The notes: generated from the sequence alone by a model not told the origin. A stretch of DNA of 64,000 nt from an uncultured virus (IMG/VR IMGVR_UViG_3300027782_000076) (IMGVR_UViG_3300027782_000076), one strand, 5' to 3'; shown: positions 28,340-62,422, numbered from the stretch's first letter. A program made the numbers and translations.

Positions 28340-29140
28340 ATGGAATATACATTAACATATAGTGAAGCGGCAAAGGGGTGGGTATCATTTTACTCATTCC
28401 AACCTGATTGGATGATTGGGATGAACAATTACTTTTATACATTTAAAGGAGGTAACTTGTATCGTCATAATGTCAATTCAGTTAGGAATAACTTCTATGG
28501 AAACCAATACTTCTCACAACTAACGAGTGTGTTTAATGATGCTCCGCTTGAGAATAAATTATTTAAAACCATAAACTTAGAGGGTGACGACGCTTGGTCT
28601 GCAAGTTTAGCTACCGACATTCAAACGACAGGGTTTATTGAGTATGATTGGTTCTCTAAGAAAGAGCAGTCTTACTTTGCATTTGTCAGAAACTCAGGCA
28701 CGGTGCCGGCATCGCCCGACCAATACCCATTAAGGTCATTAAATGGTATAGGCAGAAGCATCTCCGTATCGGGTCCTAACACAGCACAGATTATTAACTT
28801 TTCTATTAACCCATTAATAGTTATAGGAAGCATTATTAGTATAGGTGACTATGTGTACTATGCAATACCCCCTTCAACAGCATTAGTGCTTGCAGGACAG
28901 GTAACGGCTATTAATGTGGATTACCCTAACGGTATTAATAGAATAGTTATTGACTCTACAATTGTAGGCGCGGTCTATCCTATACCATCTCAAACAGCTT
29001 ATTTCTTATACATTAAGAACTCGGTGGCTGAATCTCACGGTGTATTGGGTCACTACTGCACATTTACTCTTCAAAACACTAATACCAATAAGATAGAATT
29101 ATTTGCTGCAGAGGCGGATATTATGAAAAGTTATCCATAA
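28340..29140 (+). CDS. Tail structural protein
   Basis: TLTYSE..KGWVSFYSF.P, K.FKTINLEG; in the tail module. Confidence 0.6.
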   Translation: MEYTLTYSEAAKGWVSFYSFQPDWMIGMNNYFYTFKGGNLYRHNVNSVRNNFYGNQYFSQLTSVFNDAPLENKLFKTINLEGDDAWSASLATDIQTTGFIEYDWFSKKEQSYFAFVRNSGTVPASPDQYPLRSLNGIGRSISVSGPNTAQIINFSINPLIVIGSIISIGDYVYYAIPPSTALVLAGQVTAINVDYPNGINRIVIDSTIVGAVYPIPSQTAYFLYIKNSVAESHGVLGHYCTFTLQNTNTNKIELFAAEADIMKSYP

Positions 29141-38200: not shown

Positions 38201-41200
38201 TTACAATACTAAAGTAAAAGACTTTACTAAAAAGATTTTAAATTCTAAAATATCTAAGGATGATATTTTAGAATATTTTGATATAAAAAAAGATATTAAC
38301 AAATATTCTGTTGATTATGGGGAGAATGGTTTAGTAAGTATATTAAGAGAAAATTTTAATGAAAAAATTAGAAAAAATAATTTTACTGAAGATTTAAATG
38401 GTAAGGTAGCACAAGGGTCATACGATATAAATGAAAATACTGAAATATTACTTGATAATTTAAGTTCTACATTTGATGATTTAAAATTAATTAAAAATTT
38501 AAAGTTTATTACAGGTAATGTTAATCTTGAAGATTCTGAAATAATATCATTAGGAAATTTAGAATTTATTGGTGGTAATCTAAATCTTAGAAACTCTGAT
38601 TTAAAAGACTTAGGTAATTTAAAGACTATTGGTGGTTCTGTTTTATTTAAAGAATCTAAAATTAAATCGTTAGGAAATTTAGAAAGTATTGGTGCAAATG
38701 CAGATTTTAGTGACTCTAAGGTTGAATCATTAGGTAATTTAAAGAGTATTGGTGGAATTGCAGAATTTCAAGATTCTTTTATTGAAGACTTAGGTAATTT
38801 AGAAACTATTGGGCAACGTGGATATTTTTCACGTTCTGATGTAAAATCATTAGGTAAATTAAAGAGTATTGGTGATGGTGGATATTTTTGGGGTTCTAAT
38901 ATTAAATCATTAGGTAATTTAGAATTTATTGGTGGAGATATTGATATTGGAGATAGTAAAATTGAAGATTTAGGTAATTTAAAAACTATTAGTGGTAATG
39001 CTCGATTTGGGAACTCTCAAATTAAAAACTTAGGTAATTTAGAAACTATTGGTGGATACGCTGATTTTATACACTCTAATGTTGAAAATTTAGGTAAATT
39101 AAAGACTATTAATCGTGATGTTTATTTTAAAGAATCTAAAATTAAAGATTTAGGTAATTTAAAAACTATTGGTGGTAATGTTTATTTTAATGATTCTAAA
39201 ATTGAATCATTAGGCAATTTAGATAGTATTGGTCAAAATGCTTATTTTACTAACTCTAATTTTAAATCATTAAATAATTTAAAGAGTATTGGTGGAAATG
39301 CTTTTTTTTCAAATTCTTCTGTTGAAGACTTAGGTGATTTAAAAACTATTGGTATCGATGCTGACTTTGAAGATTCTAAAGTTAAATCGTTAGGAAATTT
39401 AAAAACTATTATTGGAAGTGCATATTTTCAAGATTCAAAAGTTGAATCATTAGGTAATTTAGAGAGTGTTGGTGTTAATATTAATATTACAAGGTCTAAT
39501 ATACCAAACTTAGGTAAATTAAAATTTATTGGAGGAATTTTATATAGTGATATTCCTGTATTAAATGCAGAGGCTCTTGATATTAAAGACAAACAATCAC
39601 CTACATTATCAAGGTCTCAATTAACAGACCCAATTACTAAGGTAGTAAGAGAGGCAAGAGCTCAAGGATTCTCTGAGGAAGCTATCAAATTATTCTTAGA
39701 GGGTGAGGGTGTATCTGCATCTGAAATTGAAAGTGCTATGTCTCCCGAGACTCCTGCATCTGCAAGAGTAAAAATATCTGAGAAGTTATCTGCAGGATTT
39801 GACAGGATGATGGGCGAGGTTGAGGGTATTATAGAGAAGTCTAAGAGGCGTAATGTAGACCAAGCAAAGATAACCGAGAACGTAATTAGTTACGTGATGG
39901 GCTCTAAAGTTTACGAGAACGCCACAGACGTACAACGCGAAAAAATTATCCGCGATATTAAGACTAAGTTTGGTATCAACCTAAAGTCTGCTCCAAGCGT
40001 AGCGAAATTATTTGGTACACTAAATGACGTTAAGAAGTTTACGCTAACCGAGAAGCAGCTTTATATTAAGCGACTTAAAGAATTACAAGAGGGAGCAAAG
40101 ACCGCAATTGCAGCTTGGAAACAGGCGTCTGTATTAATGGCTAAAGAGATTAAAGCACTTGTGAAGTCGGGTACTATTACAGCAAGACAAGAAGGTTTTA
40201 TTATAAGCAAGTTTGCTAAGGTAAATATGCTAAGCCCTAAATCTGTGTTAAGATTTGTTGACTATATGGGCAAAGTGTTTGCAGATGCAGAGTACGGTGC
40301 TCAGTTGGGAACAGCAAAGGGTCTTAGAAGTGATATTAAAAAGCTATCTAAAAATAAAGAGAAGAACGCAGACTTTAGAAAGTTAGCAGAAGAGTTTATA
40401 AATATTGACCCGGCAATGGTGGACGATATTTATGCGTACAATGAGATGGCTTCTCAGATTAAGAGTTCTGTAAAGGGTTCTACTTTAAGAGGAGAGAAAG
40501 TTAAATTCTCTGACGTTGTAAGTATTCAGGACGCCACAAGATATATTAGCGATACATTAAGAGTCCAAGATAAAAAAATCTTAGAAGAGCAAAGAGCAGA
40601 GGTACAGGAGCTGATGGGTATTGATGCATCAGATATGACCCCTGAACAATTGAGAGATTTATTAGAAGGCGAAGGAGAAGTTAAAGTAACAAAGTATAAC
40701 GAGTCTATTGTAAGAAGTCTTTTAGATAAAGCATTCAAGGCTTACTCAGGAGTAATAGACGAGATATTAAAGACGGGTTACGATGCGTTCTATACAGGAG
40801 AAAAAGTTGAGCTAACTAAAAATCAGAAGACTTTAATTAAACAATTTATGGATATGGACTTAACCGTTCTTACTCCTAAAGAATCTCTTCAGGCTGTGGA
40901 TGCCCTTGCTAACTTTATTCAAAACCAATCTACTGCGAAGATGGAGACAGTTGTCTCTGATTACACGGGAAGATTAAACGCGCGTAAATTAGCAGCATCA
41001 GGTGTTAAGGCTCAACCTTTAATGAAGTATAAGTCAAAAGGATTTGGTAAATTCTTAGCAGAACAAACTACAACGCTACCTATTCTATTTGAAAAAATGT
41101 TCAAAGGATTTAATAGGTCAGGTGAAGTAATGGATATGATGGGTGTTACTAAACTTATCAATGGTAAGTCTCTTGCGCAGAATATGTCAAATATAATTGT

Positions 41201-50423: not shown

Positions 50424-50451
50424 AAAAAAAGGGGAGAGAATGCCCCTCCCC
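50424..50451 (-). terminator. Intrinsic terminator after ssb
   Basis: Minus strand GGGGAGGG/CTCTCCCC plus T7. Confidence 0.65.
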
Positions 50452-50467
50452 TCGCTTTTAATTGGTT

Positions 50468-50749
50468 TTAGAATGGTAAACCATCGCTCTCCTCTTCAAC
50501 AGCGGGAGCTGACTTTGCCGTTGGCGTTTCACCCTTGCCCTTAGGCTCGAATGTGTCCAACTCTAAGTAAGCGTTACCGCTTCTTGCGTACTTGGCGTTC
50601 AGGTTAACCCATCCACCTTTTTGATGCTTCTGCATAAATGCAATTGCATCGTCTACCTTAATTGATACTCTTCCGATAACAAAATCGGGTGCGTTCTCTT
50701 GACGTTTGAAAGAGAATCCGTCTGCAAAAATTTTTTCGTCTTGTGACAT
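50468..50749 (-). CDS. ssb: Single-stranded DNA-binding protein (small OB-fold type)
   Basis: Acidic tail EEESDGLPF; lies next to Sak/RecE. Confidence 0.65.
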   Translation of the reverse strand: MSQDEKIFADGFSFKRQENAPDFVIGRVSIKVDDAIAFMQKHQKGGWVNLNAKYARSGNAYLELDTFEPKGKGETPTAKSAPAVEEESDGLPF

Positions 50750-50769
50750 TTTACTTTTTTTTAAAATTT

Positions 50770-50819
50770 ACCTTAGTCTGTTTTAACCGACCACCAACCT
50801 CTAAGGTTAAGCTGATGAT
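50770..50819 (-). promoter_or_regulatory. H-type RNA pseudoknot in the ssb leader
   Basis: S1 AUCAUCAGCUU/AGGUUGGUGGU, L1 = A, S2 ACCUUAG/CUAAGGU. Confidence 0.6.
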
Positions 50820-50825
50820 AGGGCA

Positions 50826-51050
50826 TTATTTTTTATGACTATCATTATCATCTATAATTCCATTTACTATTTCCATTGTCATCTCATAAAGAAAGTAGGG
50901 TATAAATATAGTCATTACTATTACAAACCAAAAAAAGTTAAATAACAATACTGCAACTTTTAATGGTCTACTCCTATTATTTCTAACTAATCTAAAAGGG
51001 AATCCACCAATTTTTTCAATAATAAATCTTACTATATCTTTCTTTTTCAT
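50826..51050 (-). CDS. Small membrane protein
   Basis: One long hydrophobic segment; AT-rich. Confidence 0.5.
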   Translation of the reverse strand: MKKKDIVRFIIEKIGGFPFRLVRNNRSRPLKVAVLLFNFFWFVIVMTIFIPYFLYEMTMEIVNGIIDDNDSHKK

Positions 51051-51078
51051 ATGGGTCTAAGTGTCTTTGAAGACACAC

Positions 51079-51810
51079 CTATAGCGTGTCCTCGATGTAA
51101 TGATTTGCAATGTCGTCCGTGGGGTTTGCACCATAATACTTTTGGTATACCTCTACAGCCTTTAAAACTTTAGCCTCTCCGCCTCGTACGAACTCCTCAG
51201 TCGGTCTAAAGATACCAAGCTGAGCCGTCGCCTTGTCGACCACATAGAACACCAATGGCTTACCAAATAATGTTTGGTATATGTAGCACTGCGAATCGTA
51301 ATTGTAAGACCTCGCAGAATATTTAAACTTCTGAATATCTGCCGTAGTCTTTAGGTCAATAATAGAATCGTTAGTTAAAATATCCGCCTTGCCCTTCCAC
51401 TTCAAACCTGCAATCTCCGTGATTGCGGGAGTCTCAAACAAGTTACCCTCTCTATAAATCTCGTCATAGAATGTAATGTTACGCTTCATCACGCTCACCA
51501 ACCTCTCGATGTCCTCCTTCTCTTTTTTAAGCATACACATCTCCAAGTTATTCTCCTCGCAGTAATTCTTGTACTCCTTCGTCGTCCTTGTCGTCACGTC
51601 TACAAACGGAATTACTTGCGCTTTCTCAGGCTCTATCAGCAACTGATGAAAATATCTACCCTCCAATAAATTTTTACTATCGGGTCTCGACTTACCATAA
51701 CCCTGAGGATTATTAAGCAGAGTACCTATGTCCGAATTGGATAGGTACTGCTTGCCTAATACTCCGTAGTAGTTATTGTCATCTCGCAATTGTTCGATGA
51801 TGTCCATCAT
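51079..51810 (-). CDS. RecE/exonuclease VIII-like PD-(D/E)xK nuclease
   Basis: LSNS, G..FH..L.EP, KGKAD, IIDLKTT, Y..Q..IY. Confidence 0.85.
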   Translation of the reverse strand: MMDIIEQLRDDNNYYGVLGKQYLSNSDIGTLLNNPQGYGKSRPDSKNLLEGRYFHQLLIEPEKAQVIPFVDVTTRTTKEYKNYCEENNLEMCMLKKEKEDIERLVSVMKRNITFYDEIYREGNLFETPAITEIAGLKWKGKADILTNDSIIDLKTTADIQKFKYSARSYNYDSQCYIYQTLFGKPLVFYVVDKATAQLGIFRPTEEFVRGGEAKVLKAVEVYQKYYGANPTDDIANHYIEDTL

Positions 51811-52430
51811 TAAGAATTTACTAAATTAGCAATCTCCTTCTTAACTGCGGGACTCATTTTGTATTTTCTACTCAATTGTTTTCCAATTGCCTCAATACCA
51901 AGCGATTTATTTGCTTCGATGTACGAACAAACCTTAGCCCAACTTGGCGAGTCTTTCTTCAACTCTTCCAACTCTGTTGTTGGTGGTGAAACTACGGGAG
52001 GCGTAGTCGTTAGCTCAGGAACGTCCTCGCCCGTCCATAAACTTAAACCTAATCCGTGCATTGCGATAGCCTTAGCCGTCGAGCGCTGAATCGTTTTGTT
52101 TACGTCCATCGACGTTAATTTCCCAATTGGAATTGCATTGTTACGAAAGTCCATCACGGGCAGGTAGTCAATATGCTCGATGTCGTTCACGACGATACCA
52201 ACCTTAACGTAGGCGGTAGTTCCGTCGGTGAAATAATTTAAGCCCGTGTGGTCGTGCTCGTAAATTTTACGCTGAGCGTTTGGATAGTGGGTCTTTAATA
52301 AAGACCAAGCGTTTGCCCAAGACAAGTAGTCAAGGTTTCCCTTGCGCTCAATCTTGTCCTTGATGCTGATTGCTGATAATGTTTTGAATACCTCGTTGGT
52401 ACTCGAAACTGCTGTTGTGTTTGTCGCCAT
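51810..52430 (-). CDS. sak: Sak/Rad52-like single-strand annealing protein (DUF1071-like)
   Basis: YLSWANAW, LPVMD.RN, VNKTIQR..AKAIAMHGLGL.LW.GED. Confidence 0.85.
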   Translation of the reverse strand: MATNTTAVSSTNEVFKTLSAISIKDKIERKGNLDYLSWANAWSLLKTHYPNAQRKIYEHDHTGLNYFTDGTTAYVKVGIVVNDIEHIDYLPVMDFRNNAIPIGKLTSMDVNKTIQRSTAKAIAMHGLGLSLWTGEDVPELTTTPPVVSPPTTELEELKKDSPSWAKVCSYIEANKSLGIEAIGKQLSRKYKMSPAVKKEIANLVNS

Positions 52431-52441
52431 TTTGTTTTGGA

Positions 52442-52744
52442 TTAAATTGTGATTGAATTTTGAATGTTTTTTACTAATTTTTTGTAGTCGGCGTCTTGTT
52501 TCATCTTGTTTTCAAATGAAGATACGCCCCTATAGATTGTTGACCAACTTGTCTTGTAGCCATTCTCCTTCATATAGGTATTAATTGTTGCTAAGGGCAT
52601 CGGTCTTACTGAACATAGATAGTACAATAAGTGCCTTGCGTCTACATACTCCTGAACCTTTGATTTTTTAAATAGGTGCTTTCTCTCTATACGAAATGTC
52701 TGAACTACCTTCTCCACACACTCATTAAATATATCTTTTTTCAT
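52442..52744 (-). CDS. DnaA domain IV-like HTH protein
   Basis: L..KSK.Q.YVDARHLLYYL...WSTI pattern; own promoter TATATTTG at 52772-52779 (minus). Confidence 0.6.
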   Translation of the reverse strand: MKKDIFNECVEKVVQTFRIERKHLFKKSKVQEYVDARHLLYYLCSVRPMPLATINTYMKENGYKTSWSTIYRGVSSFENKMKQDADYKKLVKNIQNSITI

Positions 52745-52802
52745 TGTATTGTAATTAAATTTGATTGTTCACAAATATACACATTGTGCATTGATTATGC
52801 AA

Positions 52803-53174
52803 TTATTTGGAAATAAACTTCCTTGCGACTCTGTCCCACAACTCCTCCTCTACCAATTCGAGCGACTTATCTTTGATGATGCTATTCATCTCGTCCGATT
52901 GTTCTGCGTCGTTAATCTCGAGCAGGAAATCTCCCGTGATTAAGATTTGGATGTAGAAACCGCCAACGTACCTTACCACGTCCCTGCAATCGGGTCTGAG
53001 CCTTGCGCTTGGGTTGTAGTGTACAAACAACTCTCTCGGTGTTATTCTGCCCGTGTTAATAAACAAATCAAAGCTCATCTCTCCGTCTTGCATCTTCTGC
53101 AGGGTTTGGATGTACAATTTATCGGGCTTGTCCTTTAGTTTTTCCTTCAGGATTTCTTCTGCTACTATGGTCAT
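52803..53174 (-). CDS. Hypothetical protein
   Basis: ORF in the early minus-strand array. Confidence 0.6.
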   Translation of the reverse strand: MTIVAEEILKEKLKDKPDKLYIQTLQKMQDGEMSFDLFINTGRITPRELFVHYNPSARLRPDCRDVVRYVGGFYIQILITGDFLLEINDAEQSDEMNSIIKDKSLELVEEELWDRVARKFISK

Positions 53175-53205
53175 CTTATTTTTACTAAATTGTTAAACAA
53201 TATTT

Positions 53206-53604
53206 TTATGCGTAAACTACTTCGCCCAATGCAATGTATTGGAATATAACGTCCGAACTTGTGGCGTCTCCGTGTTCGTTTATTTCGTTTAGGATAGCCC
53301 AACTATTATCGTCGGTAGCACACTTTTGCAGTCTTTCACTCATCGTAGTCATACTGATTGTTCCAACTGCGTCCTCGTCCTCCTCCTCTTCGATGTCGTG
53401 TATCTCTACGTCAATGTTGTGGTCGTACACTGCTGAGAATAGAGCCTGACTAAATGGTATACTCCTATCAGGCACAACTTCTCTGACTTTCTTAACGGCT
53501 TTACCTCCGATAAGATACCAATAATTACTCCCGCCCTCTAATGCGGTTACAAAGATGTCTTCCAAGACTTCTCTTGTCAATTCAATGTTAATAGATACTT
53601 TCAT
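53206..53604 (-). CDS. Hypothetical phage protein
   Basis: TALEGGSNYW and DA..SDVIFQ...GEVVY motifs. Confidence 0.7.
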   Translation of the reverse strand: MKVSINIELTREVLEDIFVTALEGGSNYWYLIGGKAVKKVREVVPDRSIPFSQALFSAVYDHNIDVEIHDIEEEEDEDAVGTISMTTMSERLQKCATDDNSWAILNEINEHGDATSSDVIFQYIALGEVVYA

Positions 53605-53789
53605 ATTTGGTTTATTATAAATTTAACTTTTGATTTTGTGTTTGGGTTTAACTCTAATTGCCCTATCGAACACCACCCATTTGCCCATTCGAAATTGTTT
53701 TCTCCTATCCAAGTTATCTTGCGGAGAACTTTGCCGTGTTCGTTTTGTAAATAAAACAAATCACCTTTGTAAATTCCTTTCGTCTTCAT
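53601..53789 (-). CDS. Hypothetical protein
   Basis: Coupled ORF. Confidence 0.55.
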   Translation of the reverse strand: MKTKGIYKGDLFYLQNEHGKVLRKITWIGENNFEWANGWCSIGQLELNPNTKSKVKFIINQI

Positions 53790-53790
53790 T

Positions 53791-53994
53791 TTATTTTATA
53801 GTTAAATGACCTACTTCTATTCCGATGTCTTCTCCGTTTTCCAACGCTTGATTTATTTCAAAAAAGTCTTCGACTAAACTTTCGCTATCGTCATCGTGTA
53901 AAACATATAATGAAAATAGTCCGCTTTGATAAACTTCTTTGGCTATGTCAGTTACTAAGAACCACACAAAGCCTTGTACAACTTTTGCTCTCAT
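53791..53994 (-). CDS. Hypothetical protein
   Basis: Closely packed ORF. Confidence 0.55.
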   Translation of the reverse strand: MRAKVVQGFVWFLVTDIAKEVYQSGLFSLYVLHDDDSESLVEDFFEINQALENGEDIGIEVGHLTIK

Positions 53995-53997
53995 AAT

Positions 53998-54324
53998 TTA
54001 GTTTGTTATTGTTTTAGTTATTAAACTCTCGATAATTTCAAACTTCCCGTCCTGAAAGTAAATATCAACGGGAAAGTCAATGTCAGGTAAGCACAATGTC
54101 TGCTCACCGAATAGGTTCATATTCACTGCCCCAAAATCCTCGATAAAGTAATCCTCGATTTCGCTCCAATGGATGAGCAACTCGATGTCCACCTCGTTAA
54201 TTTTTATCTCCACCGAATATATCAATGCAGACTTGTTGTTGACCTCGAACACTTCGAGGTCGATTGTTGGGAACTTGTTCTCTTGTACCCAAGAACTCAG
54301 CTCCGATAATTTAAATTTTTTCAT
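53998..54324 (-). CDS. Hypothetical acidic protein
   Basis: Start moved to ATG 54324 (A-rich leader); the track start at 54360 lies inside the ribozyme. Confidence 0.6.
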   Translation of the reverse strand: MKKFKLSELSSWVQENKFPTIDLEVFEVNNKSALIYSVEIKINEVDIELLIHWSEIEDYFIEDFGAVNMNLFGEQTLCLPDIDFPVDIYFQDGKFEIIESLITKTITN

Positions 54325-54349
54325 TTGTTTGTTTGTTTTGGTTTTTAAA

Positions 54350-54403
54350 TCCCGTTTCATCCTTTTGGAATCATCAGTCGAGACAACTCATCTCGATACG
54401 GGA
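54350..54403 (-). ncRNA. Type III hammerhead ribozyme HH1
   Basis: UCCCG-UA/UCGAGA-UGAGUUG-UCUCGA-CUGAUGA-UUCC-AAAA-GGAU-GAAA-CGGGA. Confidence 0.85.
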
Positions 54404-54571
54404 GAGTGTCCTTAAAGACACTCCCGTTTTTTATGGTCTAAACCTGACGACTTCGGTCTCGGTGAACCAACTACAAAAACCCCCGTAATAATAGTGTGCG
54501 AACCCCATCGAACCTCAGTCGTTATAATAAAGCACTAAGATAGCATATACATTGCACATATCAAAATTAAA

Positions 54572-54772
54572 TTAATCTTTGTAGCTTGGCTTGATAGCAA
54601 AGCACTCAATCATCTCGTCGTGATAGGCGTCAATATTATTGACCTTAGTGAACTCGTTCGCTTGTTGTTTGGTCTCAAACTCAGCCACCAATCTTTCACT
54701 CTTGCACCTATATATTTTGGCGTAATTCGTCGGTACTTCGACCACGCTCCACACAATTTTCTTATTCATCAC
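54572..54772 (-). CDS. Hypothetical protein
   Basis: Early-array ORF. Confidence 0.55.
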   Translation of the reverse strand: MMNKKIVWSVVEVPTNYAKIYRCKSERLVAEFETKQQANEFTKVNNIDAYHDEMIECFAIKPSYKD

Positions 54773-54965
54773 AGGCCTCCTTTACTATTTCAAATACTCT
54801 GACGCCGTTAACTTCCCTGAACTCAATCGGGTACAACTTGATTAACATTTCTAATTTGTCCTTGAAGAATCCTCGTCTGCTCTTAGGCAGATAAATCAAT
54901 CTGTCAATCACCTCTTGCGTCAACTCCCTGCGCTCTTGGTACACATCTACTTTTTGCTCTTGCAT
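54762..54965 (-). CDS. Hypothetical protein
   Basis: Early-array ORF. Confidence 0.55.
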   Translation of the reverse strand: MQEQKVDVYQERRELTQEVIDRLIYLPKSRRGFFKDKLEMLIKLYPIEFREVNGVRVFEIVKEACDE

Positions 54966-54969
54966 AACT

Positions 54970-55119
54970 TTAGTTTTTAAGTTTAATTTTAATCATATCC
55001 AAAATAAAATTGTCAATGTTCTGCTGTCCCCAACTGCGGGCACCCTCGAACGAATCAAAGTCCTTACGTGCTACCTTGTAGGCGTTGTCTTTGTTTAGGT
55101 ATTCAATGTAAATCTCCAT
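54970..55119 (-). CDS. Hypothetical protein, 49 aa (not in ORF track)
   Basis: MEIYIEYLNKD...KLKN* fills the gap exactly. Confidence 0.55.
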   Translation of the reverse strand: MEIYIEYLNKDNAYKVARKDFDSFEGARSWGQQNIDNFILDMIKIKLKN

Positions 55120-55120
55120 C

Positions 55121-55309
55121 TTACTTGTTGTTTAGGGTTTCGTCTAATCTATTACACCCGTACGCAACTGCGCCTAAGGATAAAAACATTGTACACATTA
55201 GCACCACCCATTCGAACGGGTTTAAGCTATCTAAAATACTCATCAGGTAGACTATCAGACCTGAATAAGCTAAGCCTCCTAAGGCTAATAAAATTATTGT
55301 TTTTTTCAT
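55121..55309 (-). CDS. Small two-TM membrane protein
   Basis: Two hydrophobic segments. Confidence 0.55.
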   Translation of the reverse strand: MKKTIILLALGGLAYSGLIVYLMSILDSLNPFEWVVLMCTMFLSLGAVAYGCNRLDETLNNK

Positions 55310-55310
55310 C

Positions 55311-55607
55311 TTACTTTCTTTCTAATTGATAAAGTTTTGTCTCAAATTCTTTGGTCATTTCCTCAACGTCGTAAACCTTTTCGTTGTCGTCGTCCTCGTA
55401 ATAATAAATGGGGACACTTATGCTATCGTCCGACGTTTCGTAGCTATCGAATTGATACTTATCGGTGTTAATCATATCGCAGTTTATAGACGATATAAAC
55501 CACATTACCGACCACACCATTCCATTGTCTTCCGCCCATTGTAGGCGCTCTTCCTTTGTTTGCTCGACCATATCGAATGGCGATGCAAAGATTCTTGTTT
55601 CTTTCAT
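55311..55607 (-). CDS. Hypothetical protein
   Basis: A-rich leader; VPIYY...KVYDVEEM..EF. Confidence 0.6.
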   Translation of the reverse strand: MKETRIFASPFDMVEQTKEERLQWAEDNGMVWSVMWFISSINCDMINTDKYQFDSYETSDDSISVPIYYYEDDDNEKVYDVEEMTKEFETKLYQLERK

Positions 55608-55640
55608 TTTTTGTTTGGTTTAATTAAGCACTATTGCTTG

Positions 55641-55684
55641 GGCTATGCAAGGGACTCGAACCCTTGTTTATACCATACATAGCC
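55641..55684 (-). ncRNA. tRNA-like minihelix (acceptor stem plus T-arm, no anticodon arm)
   Basis: GGCUAUGU-AUGGUAUAAAC-AAGGG-UUCGAGU-CCCUU-GCAUAGCC. Confidence 0.6.
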
Positions 55685-55691
55685 AATCTAA

Positions 55692-55931
55692 TCAATCGTA
55701 GTCGGGGAAAAAATCTTCCCAACCATCTGCAATTCCGTTTGTGTTCATTCTGCGCATTGGCTCCTGTCTCTGCTCCTCCTGTTCGCCTTGCACATCGATA
55801 AAATAAATCGTGTCAGGAAATAAATCCTTTAAACTATCCATCTCGATTACCGCCTCGTCGTACGATAAATCACTTGCCTCGATTTGTGGGTACCCGTCCT
55901 CGTCCACGCCACATACTCTGAACTTGTCCAT
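55692..55931 (-). CDS. Hypothetical acidic protein
   Basis: Start moved to ATG 55931 (MDKFRV). Confidence 0.55.
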   Translation of the reverse strand: MDKFRVCGVDEDGYPQIEASDLSYDEAVIEMDSLKDLFPDTIYFIDVQGEQEEQRQEPMRRMNTNGIADGWEDFFPDYD

Positions 55932-55936
55932 ATCCG

Positions 55937-56101
55937 TTAGTATTTGTCCGTTAAACACTCTCTACGCTCCACCTTAGACCCGTCAATCGTTAGCGCCATC
56001 TTAACTGCGTCGGAACACTTTTTGAACGTGTACATCTGCACAAACTTTCCTAAGCATAGGCAGTCCACTGCCCACAACTTAGCCATCTTTAATTTTCTCA
56101 T
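55937..56101 (-). CDS. Hypothetical protein, 54 aa (not in ORF track)
   Basis: MRKLKMAKLWAVDC...TDKY* fills the gap. Confidence 0.5.
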   Translation of the reverse strand: MRKLKMAKLWAVDCLCLGKFVQMYTFKKCSDAVKMALTIDGSKVERRECLTDKY

Positions 56102-56105
56102 TTTT

Positions 56106-56591
56106 TTAGTTTAATTTAATTTTTTCCTCTAATAATATATCTAAGACTTCCAACTCGGACTCGTATTCCACGTCTCTCCACGAATAGACGTCGGTCTCCT
56201 TGTCGTAGTCTTTTATCCAATAGATGTCGGTCTCCTTGTCGTGGTCGATTCTATCAAAGTCCTCACCCTCTAAGTTCACTACGGACATACCGCCAACGTC
56301 ACCGATAACGCAACCAAATATTTTACCATCGGTCTCAACGTAGTCGTAGCGATAGTCTAACCCGAATTTTAATGCAAGTTGGTCGACCTGATAAATATCA
56401 GGAGTACCCTCAGTAATGAAATCGACAACACCATCTTCAATAGTCAAATCAAAGCAATACTTTTCTTGTTTGCCGTCCATCAAATAAATACTATCGTATC
56501 TATTTTTGGTCGTTCGAGATTTAATAAATTCTAAGCATTCTGCGACTCTATCTCCTTGAAATAAAATCGTATTGTAGCAATTGTTCGCCAT
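56106..56591 (-). CDS. Hypothetical protein (MxNxCxN start, possibly YubB/ferredoxin-like)
   Basis: MANNCYNTI N-terminus; Y.E.D...G. Confidence 0.55.
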   Translation of the reverse strand: MANNCYNTILFQGDRVAECLEFIKSRTTKNRYDSIYLMDGKQEKYCFDLTIEDGVVDFITEGTPDIYQVDQLALKFGLDYRYDYVETDGKIFGCVIGDVGGMSVVNLEGEDFDRIDHDKETDIYWIKDYDKETDVYSWRDVEYESELEVLDILLEEKIKLN

Positions 56592-56597
56592 TTTTTT

Positions 56598-57215
56598 TTA
56601 ATTATTTAAGTGGTTATTATTAATCAGGTAAAAATTATCGGTCACCTCTTGGTTATCCGTGTCAAACTCCTCGATAAGCAAGTCGTAGTTTAACTTATGG
56701 GTGTTGCAAAACTTTAAGTAGTTTTTCAACCCTTGCACGTCGTCCAATTCAAAATGCTTATCAGGCAGAATGTTACTTGGTCTCTTAGGGTCGTCGCACC
56801 TTATCAGGTAGTACATCTCGTATTGATTGCCGTAGTCGTTTATCCACTCGGTAAGCAATTCCCTTGTAACGTAACAGGCATCGGGCGTACCATCGAACAA
56901 TCTTAGCTTGCCGTTCGAATCGTGAGCCATACGCCCTTCCTGCCTCTTATGCAAAATCATTTCGTCTAATACGCTTTGTAGCTCGTGCTTAGATACCTTA
57001 GTTGGCTCGGGGGTATCAATTAGATACGCCCAAGATAACCACACGCTAAGACCATCGTTGTGGTCTCTTCTCGCAATGTACTTCGCATCGTCTTCCGACT
57101 CAGCCTGTACAATACATTTAACCTTCATTAACTCAGGCTCAGCCTTGTCAATGTCTCTCGATGGGTTAACCACTAACTGCATCGAAACTTCGTACTCTTT
57201 TAATTTCTTGTCCAT
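56598..57215 (-). CDS. Hypothetical protein
   Basis: 205-aa early ORF. Confidence 0.65.
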   Translation of the reverse strand: MDKKLKEYEVSMQLVVNPSRDIDKAEPELMKVKCIVQAESEDDAKYIARRDHNDGLSVWLSWAYLIDTPEPTKVSKHELQSVLDEMILHKRQEGRMAHDSNGKLRLFDGTPDACYVTRELLTEWINDYGNQYEMYYLIRCDDPKRPSNILPDKHFELDDVQGLKNYLKFCNTHKLNYDLLIEEFDTDNQEVTDNFYLINNNHLNN

Positions 57216-57228
57216 TTTTTTGGTCTCC

Positions 57229-57537
57229 TTATTTTTGATTTAATTTAATTTTTGTCCATAGAATTTCACAACCGCAACAATTATACACCTCGATTCCGAT
57301 GTACCCGTCTTTCTCTTTGTATTTAAAGTAATCTCGGCTACGACCTACGCAGTAAACACCTTTGTGACCTATTGCGTCAGCCTTGTCAATTTGTATCATC
57401 TCGGTATCTTGGAAATACTCGATGCCGTCAAACATTCCATTGAACCTTGACTTTGTTTCGACGAATAATTCGTCTGCATTTTTAATGAACGACTTTAGCG
57501 TCGCCATCGTGATTTTTTTGTTTTTTAAATTTTCCAT
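57229..57537 (-). CDS. Hypothetical phage protein
   Basis: KITMATLKSFI...SRFNGM.D...GVYCVG.SRDYF...VYNCCG. Confidence 0.7.
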   Translation of the reverse strand: MENLKNKKITMATLKSFIKNADELFVETKSRFNGMFDGIEYFQDTEMIQIDKADAIGHKGVYCVGRSRDYFKYKEKDGYIGIEVYNCCGCEILWTKIKLNQK

Positions 57538-57560
57538 TTTTTTATGGGTTTAAGGGGTTT

Positions 57561-57611
57561 GCCGTTTCGTCCTTTTGGACTCATCAGGTGGGACACTCAT
57601 CCCACGACGTC
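57561..57611 (-). ncRNA. Type III hammerhead ribozyme HH2
   Basis: GACGUC/GUGGGA-UGAGUG-UCCCAC-CUGAUGA-GUCC-AAAA-GGAC-GAAA-CGGC; fully canonical core. Confidence 0.9.
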
Positions 57612-57638
57612 AGGAGCGCCTGAGCGCCCCTGATTTGA

Positions 57639-58043
57639 TTACTCTATCGGGTGAACTTTAATATCATTCTCAACCAATTGCTGAAACCAATTTTTCAACT
57701 CTAAATCAGCGACGTATATCCACGTCGACACCTCACGGGATAGGGCGTTGGTGCTACGCGCCCTGACGTTGCCCTTGCGATTCAATGTTACTTCGTAATT
57801 ACCGATTATTACTTTAAGTTTCTCTTGCTGATGTTTGTTAGCGTGGTTCGGATTGTTAAAGTAAAGTAAATGGTATTTGTACTCCTCAATTTGGTATTGA
57901 TAGGTATATAAATTCTCACCTACTTCGGCAAAGTTTTCTAAGAAATTTGCGTTCAATAATTTTTGCAAATCTTTAACCTTGTACTCCAAATATTTAATTT
58001 GGTTTGTTACTTCTGATGCGATGTCGTTGATGTCTCTTCTCAT
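57639..58043 (-). CDS. Hypothetical protein
   Basis: Early ORF with A-rich leader. Confidence 0.6.
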   Translation of the reverse strand: MRRDINDIASEVTNQIKYLEYKVKDLQKLLNANFLENFAEVGENLYTYQYQIEEYKYHLLYFNNPNHANKHQQEKLKVIIGNYEVTLNRKGNVRARSTNALSREVSTWIYVADLELKNWFQQLVENDIKVHPIE

Positions 58044-58087
58044 TTTTTTTTGGTTTAAATTGTTTCTGATTAAATTGATTAAATTGA

Positions 58088-58369
58088 TTATAATTCCTTA
58101 ACTAAATACTTGTCGTACAACTCTTCCTTGTTCGGTTGTCCTGATACCCAATTGATGTACAGGTAAGGGTCGACGCCATTGCTTAGGATGTGCTTAGCCG
58201 TTAGGATTTTGATGTCCTTAAAGTCGTAATCCATATCCTCGATATCGTACTTCGAGTAGTACAAAATATCTTCCTTGTCCGTTCCCTTGTAGTCCCATCC
58301 ATTTACGATGATGAACGTGCCTTTAAGCACTGCAAAGTGCGTGTACTTTTTTGTTGCTTTGTGTTTCAT
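58088..58369 (-). CDS. Hypothetical protein (first early gene)
   Basis: YTHFAV.K...IVNGWDY; downstream of the candidate early promoter. Confidence 0.65.
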   Translation of the reverse strand: MKHKATKKYTHFAVLKGTFIIVNGWDYKGTDKEDILYYSKYDIEDMDYDFKDIKILTAKHILSNGVDPYLYINWVSGQPNKEELYDKYLVKEL

Positions 58370-58407
58370 TTTTATAGGGGTTTAACAATGCTACCTGCAT
58401 TGGATGT

Positions 58408-58438
58408 GCAATTTACATGCAATACTATTAATATCAAA
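58408..58438 (-). promoter_or_regulatory. Candidate early promoter
   Basis: TTTG-19nt-TAAATTGC, a near match to the Bacteroidota -33/-7 consensus. Confidence 0.45.
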
Positions 58439-58891
58439 ATATTATTTACTTTTTTATTCACTTATTTTAAAAACTCAATGTTTATGCGGGTTTCAGGGGC
58501 GCTCAAGTGATCAAAATTTGTAGTGTTTTGGGTGGTGCAGTAATAACCGCCTTTCTGCGTCTACCTGATAGTTTTTTTGTCCTGTGTTCACATTCATATT
58601 ACCTGAGAGCAGTGCCTTGCGATGTGTCGAATGCGATGCGCAGAGCCACACAAATCACCTGCACCCAATCGACTCTACCTGAGTGCTGCGAACCACTCAT
58701 TCAGGCTCAGGATGCCCACAGGAAAACGCCAAAAAATCCGAGGCGCTCGAGGGAAATCCTGACCCCCCCCCTGCAAAAAAAAATCGTTTCCGTCGCGGGG
58801 GTCGGCTCGCCAAACCGCTATATAGCCCAAACACTACTATCATCTGATATTTTTTTATATCTTTGTATTATTAAACCTTATTATATATCAT

Positions 58892-60805: not shown

Positions 60806-62422
60806 ATGCAAACAGAAAATTTAGGGTACTCCCCGAAGAACTTACAGTTCGACGAGCAGGGTAGGGAAAAATTAGCTAATGGTGTTAAGCTGATGGCGAA
60901 GGCTGTCAAGAGCACATTAGGTCCAAGTGGAAACACGGTGCTAATTGAATCACCAAATCACACACACGGTATTACGGTAACAAAGGACGGGGTAACAGTA
61001 GCAAAGTCTATTGACCTGTTAGACCCTGTAGAAAACCTTGCGGTTAAGATTATGAAGGAGGCGGCAGACAGAACTGCTACGAGTGCCGGTGACGGTACGA
61101 CCACTGCAATTGTGCTAACCGAGGCTTTAGTAATAAATGGTCTTAACTTAATTAACGAGGGTTACAACAGAACAGAAGTATTAAGAGCGTTATCGGACAT
61201 AACCACTAAGGTGGTGGACAAGTTGGTTAAAAAAAGTAAGAAGGTAAGTAACGCAATGTTGTCCGATGTGGCAACTATATCAGCAAACAACGACAAGGAG
61301 ATAGGTAAGATTATCTCTGAGGTATATAAAGAGGTTGGTAAGAACGGTATCGTGACCGTCGAGAGGTCGCAGACTGCGGACACCTATGCTGAAACCACTA
61401 AGGGATTAAAGATTGAGAGAGGTTACTCGTCTCAGCTGTTTATCAATAACCAAAAGAAGGACGAGTGTATATTTGAGGACGTGATGGTAATGGTAGCAGA
61501 TGTGGACATTAGTAACATCTTGCAGATTGAGAACGTATTAAAACCAATTATATCTGAGGGTAAAAAATTACTAATCATTGCACCGTGCTCTACCAATGTG
61601 GTTAACACTATTGCCGCTAACGTAATGAAGAACAACTTAAAGATATGCACAATTCAACCACCGAACTTTGGGTACAAGCAACACGAGCTGATGCAAGATA
61701 TTGCTATTAGCGTCGGAGCCACGTACTTCAGCGAGAAAACCGGAGATGATTTGTCTCATATCAGTTACGCTGATTTAGGTCACGCAAGTAGAGTAATTGT
61801 TGGTAGAGACAGCACGGTACTTGTTAAGTCAACTGCAAAGGCGGACGAAACATTAATTGCTGAGCGCGTTGCACAGCTGTGGGATGCTTACGCAATGGCA
61901 AAGAGAAAGACGGACAAGGACTTTATCTTAGAGAGAATCGCATCACTCACGGGTGGTGTTGGTGTAATCTACGTCGGTGGTAACACTGACTTGGAGCAGA
62001 AGGAATTATTCGATAGAGTAGACGACGCGGTATGCGCGGTACGTTCAGCCTTGGAGGAGGGAATATTGTCGGGAGCGGGTAAGGCATTGTACGAGATTAA
62101 CTGCTCAGAGTTTTTAACAGAAGATGCATCTGACGAATATAAGATTGCGAGTTTAATTATTCAACTTGCAATTGAGTCACCACTAAAACAAATATTAACT
62201 AATGCAGGATTAAGTTCTGAAGATATTTATAGCGGTGAGAAAAAAGAAGGTTGGGGCTATAACCTGAAAGATGGTAAGATGGGAGATTTAATTTCGATGG
62301 GTGTTATTGACCCATTAAAGGTAACGAGAAGCGCACTACAGAATGCAGTCTCAGTTGCAATAACTATACTAAGTACGAATGCTATCATTACGATGTCAAG
62401 GACGTATGAAGCAGGTTCTTAA
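60806..62422 (+). CDS. groEL: Phage-encoded chaperonin GroEL
   Basis: TLGP.G, VTKDGVTVAK, AGDGTTTA, ATISAN, GVIDP.KV.R.ALQNA.S; promoter at 60771-60778. Confidence 0.97.
   Translation: MQTENLGYSPKNLQFDEQGREKLANGVKLMAKAVKSTLGPSGNTVLIESPNHTHGITVTKDGVTVAKSIDLLDPVENLAVKIMKEAADRTATSAGDGTTTAIVLTEALVINGLNLINEGYNRTEVLRALSDITTKVVDKLVKKSKKVSNAMLSDVATISANNDKEIGKIISEVYKEVGKNGIVTVERSQTADTYAETTKGLKIERGYSSQLFINNQKKDECIFEDVMVMVADVDISNILQIENVLKPIISEGKKLLIIAPCSTNVVNTIAANVMKNNLKICTIQPPNFGYKQHELMQDIAISVGATYFSEKTGDDLSHISYADLGHASRVIVGRDSTVLVKSTAKADETLIAERVAQLWDAYAMAKRKTDKDFILERIASLTGGVGVIYVGGNTDLEQKELFDRVDDAVCAVRSALEEGILSGAGKALYEINCSEFLTEDASDEYKIASLIIQLAIESPLKQILTNAGLSSEDIYSGEKKEGWGYNLKDGKMGDLISMGVIDPLKVTRSALQNAVSVAITILSTNAIITMSRTYEAGS

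Follow-up and report, generated by a model that had tools for sequence, protein, structure and literature searches.

We propose, with a probability of roughly 55%, that a minus-strand array of small genes in an uncultured freshwater phage of Bacteroidota type gives rise to one or a few long RNAs, and that cis-acting RNA elements located in the gaps between the genes would cut and tune them. The window, by which we mean the whole 64,000-nt stretch analysed, contains four such elements: two type III hammerhead ribozymes (HH1, 57559-57613; HH2, 54349-54404), a tRNA-like minihelix (55642-55683) and an H-type pseudoknot (50770-50819). As an earlier note on this DNA had described, all four lie on the coding (minus) strand of the array and in gaps between ORFs. 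By our model, such elements would cut the polycistronic RNA into mRNAs that are separately stabilised and separately translated.

In the ORF listing of the window, the array (50468..58369, minus strand) comprises about 24 tightly packed small ORFs. These include a PDDEXK exonuclease (51079-51810), a Sak-type annealing protein (51810-52430) and a DnaA-HTH-like ORF (52442-52744), all on the minus strand; 18 of the 22 array ORFs searched had no family match, which leaves the terms 'early' and 'host-takeover' of the earlier note as provisional labels. The first promoter of the array would be expected in the divergent intergenic region at 58370..58506, which is ∼76% conserved in the relative L055/L080; a promoter was sought there and none identified. 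At the other end, an intrinsic terminator (50429..50453, minus strand), consisting of an 11-bp stem and a T run, closes the array after a gene for an SSB-like protein. Within the array, the minus-strand site at 52772-52802 (TTG, 20 nt, then TATATTTG) is a good match to a Bacteroidota-type promoter, judged by the -33/-7 consensus of this type. Because of this internal promoter-like site, the array may not be a single transcript, and its RNA possibly consists of several.

HH1 (57559-57613, minus strand) has a canonical core with a GUC site and a G10.1-C11.1 pair. Its cut is predicted between 57606 and 57605, and the next ORF starts with the ATG at 57537. A stable, GC-rich hairpin (CAGGGGCGCU-CAGG-CGCUCCUG; 57610..57633, minus strand) lies directly 5' of HH1 and would form the 3' end of the upstream RNA after cleavage. 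HH2 (54349-54404, minus strand) has a GUA site, a U10.1.U11.1 mismatch and a predicted cut between 54397 and 54396. The hairpin directly 5' of it (54403..54427, minus strand) is of the GUGUC...GACAC type, and its outer pairs share nucleotides with the 5' strand of HH2 stem III. A lone hairpin of this type (GUGUC-N6-GACAC; 51061..51076, minus strand) is found just after the exonuclease stop codon, and the same type also precedes many hammerheads.

Both ribozymes carry CUGAUGA...GAAAC and thus the conserved catalytic core of RF00008 (C3 U4 G5 A6 N7 G8 A9, G12 A13 A14, A15.1-U16.1 and H17). Scored with the Rfam model Hammerhead_3, HH1 reaches 42.4 bits and HH2 34.2 bits, with E values of 1.1e-6 and 2.4e-4, respectively, in a 10-kb search and of 7.1e-6 and 0.0015 across the whole window. 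Neither attains the RF00008 gathering score of 48.5 bits, and a gathering-threshold Rfam scan of the whole window gave 0 matches. The low scores are explained by stem III and loop 2 being short and, for HH2, also by its U.U pair. This pair weakens HH2, while HH1 has a weak, mismatched short stem III (3 bp, one mismatch, 2 bp). A model trained on 59 hammerheads, both window copies among them, gives these two ∼71-72 bits. In Perreault et al. 2011, U10.1-U11.1 appears as a natural variant, and according to earlier mutational work cited there, no other mismatch supports as much cleavage (PMC3088659). Over 48 nt, HH2 is 89.6% identical to hammerheads of Pseudomonas phages, which belong to a different host phylum. 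The hammerhead of Pseudomonas phage PaP3, which shows core variation and is listed among the active ones in the same paper (PMC3088659), may differ from the one matched by HH2.

The ORF listed at 53998-54360 runs into HH2 solely through the use of an in-frame ATG further upstream as its start. Its homologue in relatives is 108 aa long, which points to 54324 as the likely start from sequence comparison; with this ATG, HH2 is wholly intergenic. On its other side, HH2 now follows a non-coding gene remnant (54405..54527, minus strand), comprising the last ∼97 nt and flank of a GATase/gamma-glutamyl-cyclotransferase gene that is intact in relatives and was lost in the window through a ∼1050 bp deletion. 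HH2 is therefore possibly a leftover.

The identity of the hammerheads is backed independently by covariation and by strand and position statistics in relatives. We collected 73 IMG/VR stretches with the shared core and stem II and, after removing 4 sequences that were not type III, aligned 59 out of 63 distinct ones. Core columns (59/59) and stem II show no variation, in both cases by construction, since the collecting pattern had fixed them; the first pair of stem II is G-C in 31/59 and U.U in 28/59. Stem I is paired in 100% of the 59 sequences, and 6/6 of its pairs covary with changes on both sides. Its covariation score is 0.588, compared with 0.156 in shuffles (reached by 0/500) and 0.06-0.10 in slid registers. 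The inner 5 pairs of stem III are mostly paired and covary. The three helices thus surround the core with stem III open, as in type III of RF00008.

Hammerheads of this family sit in a fixed module of stop codon, stable hairpin, ribozyme, ∼26-nt A-rich leader and ATG. Among 78 distinct type III hammerheads, the tail of the 5' product folds with an MFE of at most -8 kcal/mol in 68 (median -17.7), as against 67 of 300 random 45-nt windows (median -5.2). Where the tail is stable, 0-7 nt separate the end of the hairpin from the cut in 64 of 68 cases. GAAAC and the ATG are a median of 26 nt apart (IQR 23-31), and a downstream ORF is present for 76 of the 78. This module is new here.

Self-cleavage just 3' of the hairpin would leave an upstream mRNA ending in the hairpin with a 2',3'-cyclic phosphate. 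The downstream mRNA would carry a 5'-OH at its start, where the compact ribozyme body precedes the unstructured leader. With hairpin and ribozyme body at their ends, the pieces would thereby be shielded from exonucleases and the start site insulated from upstream sequence. In T7, the early polycistronic RNA is likewise cut between genes at structured intergenic sites by RNase III, and hairpins are left at the 3' ends. The T7 cutter is a host protein enzyme that is specific for double strands and acts on long hairpins, whereas the cutters proposed here are the RNA itself, in the hammerheads, and tRNA-processing enzymes; the comparison is by analogy only.

Chopping a message gene by gene is an existing proposal for phage hammerheads. 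Perreault et al. 2011 describe clustered hammerheads flanking prophage and phage genes and propose processing into gene-length mRNAs (PMC3088659). As in our phage, these hammerheads are intergenic in phage operons, occur several per transcript and lie on the coding strand (PMC3088659). In contrast, the ribozymes described here form one tight type III subfamily, in which stem II and its loop (UCC-AAAA-GGA) hardly vary. They belong to the fixed module of hairpin, ribozyme, ∼26-nt leader and ATG, and at orthologous boundaries their place is taken in some relatives by a tRNA-like element or a bare hairpin. Subfamily, module and alternation were not found in the passages of PMC3088659 consulted. 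Given this precedent, and the parallel between the pseudoknot and T4 gene 32, the earlier note's choice of the window's elements as the best candidate for an undescribed system was overstated as to 'undescribed'.

The minihelix (55642-55683, minus strand) measures 42 nt and consists of a 7-bp acceptor stem, a 5-bp T stem and the loop UUCGAGU. An 11-nt linker, AUGGUAUAAAC, replaces the D arm, anticodon arm and variable region, and no CCA is encoded. The element begins 9 nt past a stop codon and ends 35 nt ahead of the next ATG. Its T arm, GGGTTCGAGTCCC, fits GGTTCRANYCC, and its acceptor and T stems are those of a t-element or RNase P minihelix. The cloverleaf and anticodon arm of a tRNA are absent, in line with 0 tRNAs called by ARAGORN in the window. 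Taken alone, the fold is thermodynamically unexceptional (z = -1.69). Orthologous minihelices in L078, L079, L080 and L130 show compensatory changes, and L082, L106, L136 and L121 keep the architecture with a different sequence. In alignment A3, the pairing of 100% in part reflects the selection step, as the script picked perfectly paired candidates.

In a strict scan of the relatives, tRNA-like elements fell into gaps throughout, 22 of them on the coding strand versus 1 on the opposite strand. In 8 loci they lie 7-18 nt past the stop codon and 35-42 nt ahead of the ATG. ARAGORN calls only 3 tRNAs in 80 loci, so most of the tRNA-like elements are not canonical tRNAs. In an IMG/VR scan, the full architecture was present in 17 of the 104 distinct matches listed, compared with 1 in a shifted-register control. 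The linker carries an invariant UGG, or the D-like loop a GG, and larger versions keep the D-like and T arms with a tetraloop instead of the anticodon loop. We take the T loop and the UGG or GG to be features of the tRNA elbow; the conserved UGG of the linker may mimic the D loop.

The minihelix would thus retain only what tRNA-processing enzymes read, namely the stack of acceptor and T arms, the T loop and the UGG. It could recruit host RNase P and/or RNase Z, leading to the same kind of cut as the hammerheads. A hairpin of acceptor stem, T stem and T loop suffices for RNase P cleavage (McClain, Guerrier-Takada and Altman 1987, as cited in PMC11143913). In plant mitochondria, t-elements, which do not decode and have a GGTTCRANYCC T arm, adjoin mRNA ends and are cut by RNase P or RNase Z (Forner et al. 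2007, PMC1920247). The minihelix resembles them in its matching T arm. Unlike t-elements, it resides in the operon of a DNA phage rather than in an organelle, it is minimal, with 42 nt and the 11-nt linker with its conserved UGG, and its cleavage is only predicted. In the literature searched, we found no description of such tRNA-like elements between phage genes or of their exchange with ribozymes.

Hammerheads were found in 14 of 79 related loci, with 1 to 5 copies per early region, and 33/33 occupy the coding strand, upstream of the primase gene. The elements are thus not randomly oriented and are kept in relatives. In 38 relatives, the sequence extends 8 kb or more upstream of the primase gene; hammerheads occur in 13 of these, tRNA-like elements in 13, both types in 7 and neither type in 19. 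Since half of these lack both types, the element system is accessory. In the closest GenBank relative, neither model detects a hammerhead, and a search covering canonical tRNAs only gave none.

At the boundary downstream of the GATase-GGACT gene, 17 distinct sequences carry a hairpin and hammerhead (8), a tRNA-like element (3, of which 2 were called by script and that of L082 by fold), a hairpin only (5) or none of these (1). This is the swap of ribozyme and minihelix at one gene boundary that the earlier note had predicted, and such interchange at an orthologous boundary is new here. Downstream of a ∼310-aa gene, 16 sequences comprise 13 with a hammerhead, 2 with a hairpin and 1 with none. 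Compared with its 96-99% relatives, the window has other genes upstream of HH1 and HH2 and retains the hairpin and hammerhead. The reading of the array as an RNA segmented by its own elements gains from orientation, conservation and interchange; the possible internal promoter and the relatives with neither element count against it.

The tight spacing between ribozyme and ATG, together with the ORF that almost always follows, would also suit modules that act mainly as 5'-UTR insulators or translation enhancers of the downstream gene, rather than setting stability and stoichiometry across the operon. Here, the upstream RNA would be cut away so that the short A-rich leader stays unstructured. In the window, the module stays with the downstream gene despite deletion of the upstream gene, and the 3' strand of stem III contains the orf01 start codon, ATG, in Pseudomonas phage phiIBB-PAA2. 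Furthermore, for RNA viruses, ribozymes placed immediately before ORFs are reported to enhance translation (PMC13725137). We nevertheless consider insulation as the main role rather unlikely, as it leaves unexplained both the near-universal stable upstream hairpin (68/78) and the swap with hairpin-only or tRNA-like elements at the same boundary. It overlaps with segmentation of the transcript and does not exclude it.

The patchy distribution, with 19/38 relatives lacking both elements, the variable hammerhead copy number, the exchange of upstream genes around a constant hairpin and hammerhead, and the match of HH2 to phages of another host phylum could instead point to junction cassettes of little regulatory role, conserved blocks at gene boundaries that persist by moving along with gene cassettes or as sites of recombination in mosaic phage genomes. 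Purifying selection on structure is strong, with compensatory changes in every stem; this selection, the strict coding-strand orientation (33/33 and 22 to 1) and the fixed distance to the next ATG are otherwise hard to explain and favour a function at the RNA level, making mere cassettes improbable. We are similarly doubtful that the minihelix is a stable small RNA released to act in trans, as a decoy or titrator of a host tRNA-binding enzyme or of a tRNA-directed defence. The T loop and the invariant UGG or GG exceed the needs of a simple cut site, the larger versions retain D-like and T arms around a tetraloop, and the family is widespread in viral contigs. Yet an element with no anticodon arm cannot be the target of an anticodon nuclease, no partner is known, and both the position between stop codon and ATG in the 8 loci and the interchange with hammerheads fit punctuation.

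The fourth element of the proposed cut and tuned transcript is the pseudoknot (50770-50819, minus strand). Stem 1 is an 11-bp hairpin (50819-50809 with 50800-50790), whose loop at 50807-50801 (ACCUUAG) pairs with 50776-50770 (CUAAGGU). The latter ends 20 nt before the ATG at 50749, and the A/U-rich, unstructured leader in between (50750..50769, minus strand) reads AAAUUUUAAAAAAAAGUAAA. In a strict test, 23 of 60 distinct upstream regions contain the pseudoknot, as opposed to 39 of 1800 shuffles. When the test is anchored, a complementary 7-mer is present in 21/29 regions versus 0-1/29 at ten offsets. The pairing of loop and downstream strand is maintained by 11 different 7-mers.

The gene that follows encodes a 93-aa protein (50468..50749, minus strand), in which a variable linker joins a conserved ∼70-aa domain to an acidic D/E-L-P-F tip that is also conserved. 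Tips of this kind are typical of bacterial SSB tails, and the protein is a putative SSB. Profile searches of Pfam, PHROGs and PDB gave no match. The AlphaFold model is poor (pLDDT 53) and contains four strands and one helix of element length in the order strand-strand-helix-strand-strand. Compared with OB-fold topology, this order may fit, in a model too weak to say.

A pseudoknot followed by an unstructured A/U-rich tract up to the start codon is the layout of T4 gene 32. There, a pseudoknot lies 5' of the gene for the ssDNA-binding protein, followed by an unstructured A+U-rich stretch up to the ribosome-binding site (PMC3014915), and in the same review the T4-type pseudoknot figures as maybe the sole viral example in translational autoregulation. 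By analogy, pseudoknot and leader here may work as a translational operator of this type for the SSB-like gene, with binding and repression by its product. The two are not related by descent: the pseudoknot sequences are unrelated, the 93-aa protein has no detectable similarity to gp32 or any family, and our phage is of Bacteroidota type with a different host range. Consistently, the pseudoknot region had no Rfam match at E up to 10, and the protein had no match to the gp32 family. The T4 gene 32 mRNA is also generated through upstream endonucleolytic processing (Uzan and Miller 2010, PMC3014915). In several relatives of our phage, a tRNA-like element or a hairpin lies directly 5' of the pseudoknot, so that a processed mRNA would begin with the pseudoknot.

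About 24 small, tightly packed ORFs occupy the minus strand of the window from 58369 to 50468, and a clear intrinsic terminator (50453-50429, minus strand) closes the array. On the same strand lie two hammerheads (HH1, 57559-57613; HH2, 54349-54404), a 42-nt anticodon-less tRNA-like element (the minihelix, 55642-55683) and an H-type pseudoknot (50770-50819), which precedes a 93-aa SSB-like ORF (50468-50749). All four were found between ORFs, in agreement with the earlier note, which had placed them in the intergenic gaps of this array. The mechanical start of the ORF at 53998-54360 (minus strand) falls within HH2. The true start is likely the ATG at 54324 rather than 54360, since homologues in relatives are 108 aa long, and with that start the overlap with HH2 vanishes. 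The gap between the first two ORFs of the array (58044-58087, minus strand) holds tandem AAUCAAUUU repeats with no evident structure.

At gathering thresholds, Rfam returned no match in the whole window, and ARAGORN found no tRNA. At E-value thresholds, Hammerhead_3 matched the minus strand at HH1 (42.4 bits) and HH2 (34.2 bits), both below the gathering score of 48.5. HH1 has a complete consensus core and a GUC cleavage site, which puts the predicted cut between 57606 and 57605. HH2 has a GUA site, with the cut predicted between 54397 and 54396, and its first stem II pair is a U.U mismatch. This mismatch (U10.1-U11.1) was noted as a natural variant by Perreault et al. 2011 (PMC3088659), who cite earlier mutational work in which it allowed more cleavage than any other mismatch. 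An IMG/VR search with the exact core and stem II pattern yielded 73 stretches, representing 63 distinct 68-nt sequences that include both window copies and the contig L002. After four were dropped as not type III (L016, L021, L035, L044), 59 sequences were aligned. In this alignment, 100% of the stem I cells are paired and each of the six pairs changes on both sides. Covariation is also seen in the inner pairs of stem III; stem II was fixed by the search pattern and is invariant for that reason. The alignment scores 0.588 for covariation, whereas shuffled alignments score 0.156 (0 of 500 reach 0.588) and slid registers 0.06-0.10. Given this covariation and the natural U.U variant, we assign HH1 and HH2 to a phage subfamily of type III hammerheads with predicted catalysis, despite their failing the curated Rfam threshold.

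In the same alignment, the cleavage-site base correlates with the first stem II pair: 26 sequences combine C17 with G-C, 27 combine A17 or U17 with U.U, and 6 of the 59 depart from this pattern; two lineages or a structural coupling may lie behind it. In loop 1, the sequence UG(A/U)GU(G/A) prevails. Outside the phage group of the window, 48 nt of HH2 are 89.6% identical to an unannotated stretch in 26 Pseudomonas Bruynoghevirus records, which in phiIBB-PAA2 ends at the orf01 ATG on the early-gene strand. The Bruynoghevirus hammerhead element is present in 69 records, immediately 5' of orf01; PaP3, a hammerhead of which Perreault et al. tested, is not among the 60 of these that were listed. No open-access paper was found that connects hammerheads with LUZ24.

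Conservation was followed at the primase gene, which has 358 relatives in IMG/VR; 79 loci were used, 72-100% identical in the primase and extending up to 10 kb on each side. A model built from the 59 hammerheads (R1) detects 33 hammerheads in 14 of the 79 loci, one to five per locus, each of which lies 5' of the primase gene in coding-strand orientation. Strictly defined tRNA-like elements are all located between ORFs, 22 on the coding strand and one on the other. The elements are thus neither randomly oriented nor unconserved, which sustains the earlier note on this point. Of the 79 loci, 38 reach 8 kb or further upstream of the primase gene; 13 of these carry a hammerhead, 13 a tRNA-like element, 7 both and 19 neither. 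Six relatives without either element gave no Rfam match at the gathering threshold, indicating that no other known ribozyme class substitutes there. The 20.8-kb early/replication part of MW202828.1 likewise contains no hammerhead (Rfam E up to 1; R1) and no canonical tRNA. From these counts, the elements are conserved where present and strictly oriented, but accessory.

The hammerheads sit in a recurrent module, which we analysed across all loci in 78 distinct hammerheads of type III. The 45-nt tail of the 5' product folds with an MFE of -8 kcal/mol or lower in 68 of the 78 (median -17.7), compared with 67 of 300 random windows (median -5.2). Between hairpin and cleavage site lie 0-7 nt in 64 of these 68. 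In 29 of 68, the fold pairs up to 2 nt or less from the new 3' end, which means that, once the RNA is cut, the upstream segment can capture the strand that formed the 5' side of stem III. Downstream, 76 of the 78 hammerheads are followed by an ORF, with a median of 26 nt (IQR 23-31) between the end of the core and the next ATG. Many of the hairpins share the sequence GUGUC-N6-GACAC.

As DNA, this 16-nt palindrome (GTGTC-N6-GACAC) occurs six times in the window, at 12923, 20338, 34674, 45308, 51061 and 54406, where 0.65 copies are expected and none of 100 shuffles reaches six. It is also found 5' of hammerheads in many unrelated viral contigs. Since three of the window copies lie within ORFs, it is perhaps more than an RNA hairpin and may be, for example, a protein-binding DNA site.

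Orthologous gene boundaries were compared as well. In relatives, the position of HH2 follows a gene for a GATase/gamma-glutamyl-cyclotransferase fusion of about 365 aa, which most of them possess. The window has lost this gene through a deletion of about 1050 bp (54405-54527 versus 4343-5391 of the relative L078), retaining its last ~97 nt, the hairpin and HH2. In 17 distinct sequences, the 3' flank of this gene carries a hairpin and hammerhead in eight, a tRNA-like element in three (two by script, L082 by fold), a hairpin only in five, one of which has a T run, and none of these in one. Ribozyme and minihelix thus replace each other at one boundary (8 versus 3 of 17), as the earlier note had anticipated for a survey of relatives. 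Behind a second gene, of about 310 aa and unassigned family, 13 of 16 sequences have a hairpin and hammerhead, two a hairpin and one nothing. The hairpin and ribozyme of HH1 are homologous to this module, and in the window they are preceded by other genes. Structures, conservation and interchange are all directly observed. That a ribozyme, a mimic of RNase P/Z substrates and a bare hairpin swap at one boundary argues that cutting and end protection are the selected function.

In the minihelix itself, an 11-nt linker joins a 7-bp acceptor stem to a perfect T arm. Orthologues in the four closest relatives show compensatory changes in both the acceptor stem (GCUAUGU/GCAUAGC versus GCUGUGU/GCACAGC) and the T stem (AAGGG/CCCUU versus AAGAG/CUCUU). 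In two other loci (L082, L106), the 7+11+5/7/5+7 layout is identical while the stems are unrelated in sequence, and a minihelix model (R2) adds two further members (L136, L121). Pairing in the minihelix alignment is 100%, partly by construction because the script demanded perfect stems; the linker UGG is invariant in all seven aligned copies. Larger versions (L101, L134, L094/L099) keep the acceptor, D-like and T arms and replace the anticodon loop with a tetraloop, and three more (L123, L125, L126) have a GUCUC...GAGAC hairpin within the linker. Across 80 loci, ARAGORN calls three tRNAs, one of which (L123:1569-1653) overlaps such an element. In eight loci (the window, L078, L079, L080, L106, L125, L126, L130), 35-42 nt lie between the element and the next ATG, and in five of these loci the element begins 7-18 nt past a stop codon. 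An IMG/VR scan for the linker/T-loop pattern gave at least 104 distinct matches, at least 17 of them with the whole architecture and at least 15 acceptor stems, compared with one in the shifted-register control among the matches listed. Two matches 350-620 nt apart on one strand were seen, among the matches listed, in three unrelated viral contigs (L162, L220, L203); both of those in L162 and both in L220 qualify as full minihelices, as if bracketing a small gene.

Two other readings of the minihelix were weighed. We reject an attP site: both acceptor strands are present and covary, and none of the 15 ORFs of at least 300 aa has an integrase match. A decaying tRNA pseudogene is unlikely as well: compensatory changes maintain the stems, and the reduced architecture recurs with unrelated sequences.

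Upstream of the 93-aa ORF, the hairpin loop ACCUUAG can pair with CUAAGGU, and 20 nt separate the latter from the ATG. A strict test, which required a 7-bp loop-downstream pairing and 5 bp or more in the enclosing stem, was passed by 23 of 60 distinct 110-nt regions upstream of homologues of this ORF and by 39 of 1800 shuffles. When the regions were anchored on a conserved NAGA motif rather than on pairing, a complementary 7-mer lay upstream in 21 of 29 versus 0-1 of 29 at ten offsets, and these 7-mers comprise eleven different sequences. An A/U-rich leader of about 20 nt follows the pairing. A few nt 5' of the pseudoknot, a tRNA-like element ends in L080, L130, L121, L088, L097 and probably L085, and a GUGUC hairpin in L076, L115, L116, L117 and L137. 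The 93-aa protein has no family match, only chance-level hits in a PDB profile search (E 0.6 or higher) and only unnamed viral clusters in a protein atlas; its AlphaFold model is poor (pLDDT 53). The label SSB-like is reasonable, though not demonstrated, given the position of the gene between recombination genes and primase gene, the conserved acidic D/E-L-P-F tip and the predicted strand-strand-helix-strand-strand order.

We propose that the gaps of the array are processing and control sites. At a hairpin and hammerhead, the transcript would cut itself 3' of the hairpin, leaving the upstream mRNA with the hairpin and a cyclic phosphate at its 3' end, and the downstream mRNA with a 5'-OH, the folded ribozyme and then an open leader. 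The minihelix would recruit RNase P and/or RNase Z for an equivalent cut, expected on the 5' side of 55683 and/or past 55641. RNase P is reported to cleave acceptor/T-arm hairpins (PMC11143913), and t-elements serve as RNase P/Z cut signals in plant mitochondria (PMC1920247). The pseudoknot and A/U leader before the SSB-like gene resemble the T4 gene 32 operator (PMC3014915) and, by analogy, may behave as it does. All enzymatic steps and all effects on expression in this scheme are inferred. The finding as a whole we rate as real. Its most general form is tentative, at a probability of roughly 0.4: phages of several bacterial phyla would share interchangeable cut-here RNA cassettes (a protective hairpin with a type III hammerhead, or an anticodon-less tRNA mimic using host RNase P/Z) at a fixed distance 5' of the next start codon, turning long early transcripts into singly end-protected, singly translated mRNAs. 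In the phage group of the window, the cassettes would also make the SSB-like mRNA begin precisely at a pseudoknot operator whose origin is independent of that of T4 gene 32.

The earlier note had regarded this as an undescribed system, which does not hold for the hammerheads: Perreault et al. 2011 (PMC3088659) had described hammerheads that flank phage genes in clusters, and suggested that they process transcripts to gene-length mRNAs. In the open-access literature searched, we found no description of the fixed hairpin-ribozyme-leader-ATG module; the same literature yielded none of anticodon-less tRNA mimics between phage genes, of their swapping with ribozymes, or of an SSB-like gene preceded by a second pseudoknot operator unrelated to the first. 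The function of phage hammerheads has been open since their discovery in 2011, and a 2026 paper still terms the roles of such ribozymes elusive (PMC13725137). The boundary interchange represents a natural experiment on this question and supplies precise predicted cleavage coordinates. In nature, the module parallels engineered ribozyme insulators and tRNA-based processing cassettes, and it could provide parts for Bacteroidota, a phylum with unusual translation signals. If true, a second pseudoknot operator of independent origin in front of an SSB-like gene would make this regulatory solution convergent.

Portal and capsid proteins, a crAss-type muzzle domain and a chaperonin are encoded in the window, alongside a replication/recombination block. 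The closest GenBank relative, an uncultured 'Podoviridae sp.' from a spring (MW202828.1), has a primase 80% identical to that of the window; the primases of Flavobacterium, Cellulophaga, Polaribacter and Bacteroides phages are more distantly related. Megablast of the region found no match in GenBank phages. DNA of the phage is present in freshwater metagenomes (24 runs listed, no RNA run among them). Leaders in the window are A-rich and lack Shine-Dalgarno sequences, and there is one TTG-N20-TATATTTG site, which we take to be the Bacteroidota promoter consensus; both features would suit a Bacteroidota host. A sigma-70 scan is uninformative because it found 25 sites where 24.5 are expected, and the host type probably has another consensus. 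A strict TAnnTTTG scan gave one convincing site within the array and none upstream of its first gene.

Within the ORF 21220-21975, a weak Rfam match to CRISPR-DR6 (21350-21416, plus strand; E 0.0019, 34.2 bits with the gathering score at 39) is probably due to chance; solitary repeat-like anti-CRISPR RNAs are reported from phages (PMC10651486). A phage-encoded Cpn60 chaperonin is located at 60806-62422 (plus strand). The ORF with the crAss-type muzzle C-terminal domain (28340-29140, plus strand) lies near a 3825-aa ORF without a Pfam match (32262-43739, plus strand). By analogy with crAss-like or N4-like phages, the latter may encode an injected cargo protein or a virion RNA polymerase.
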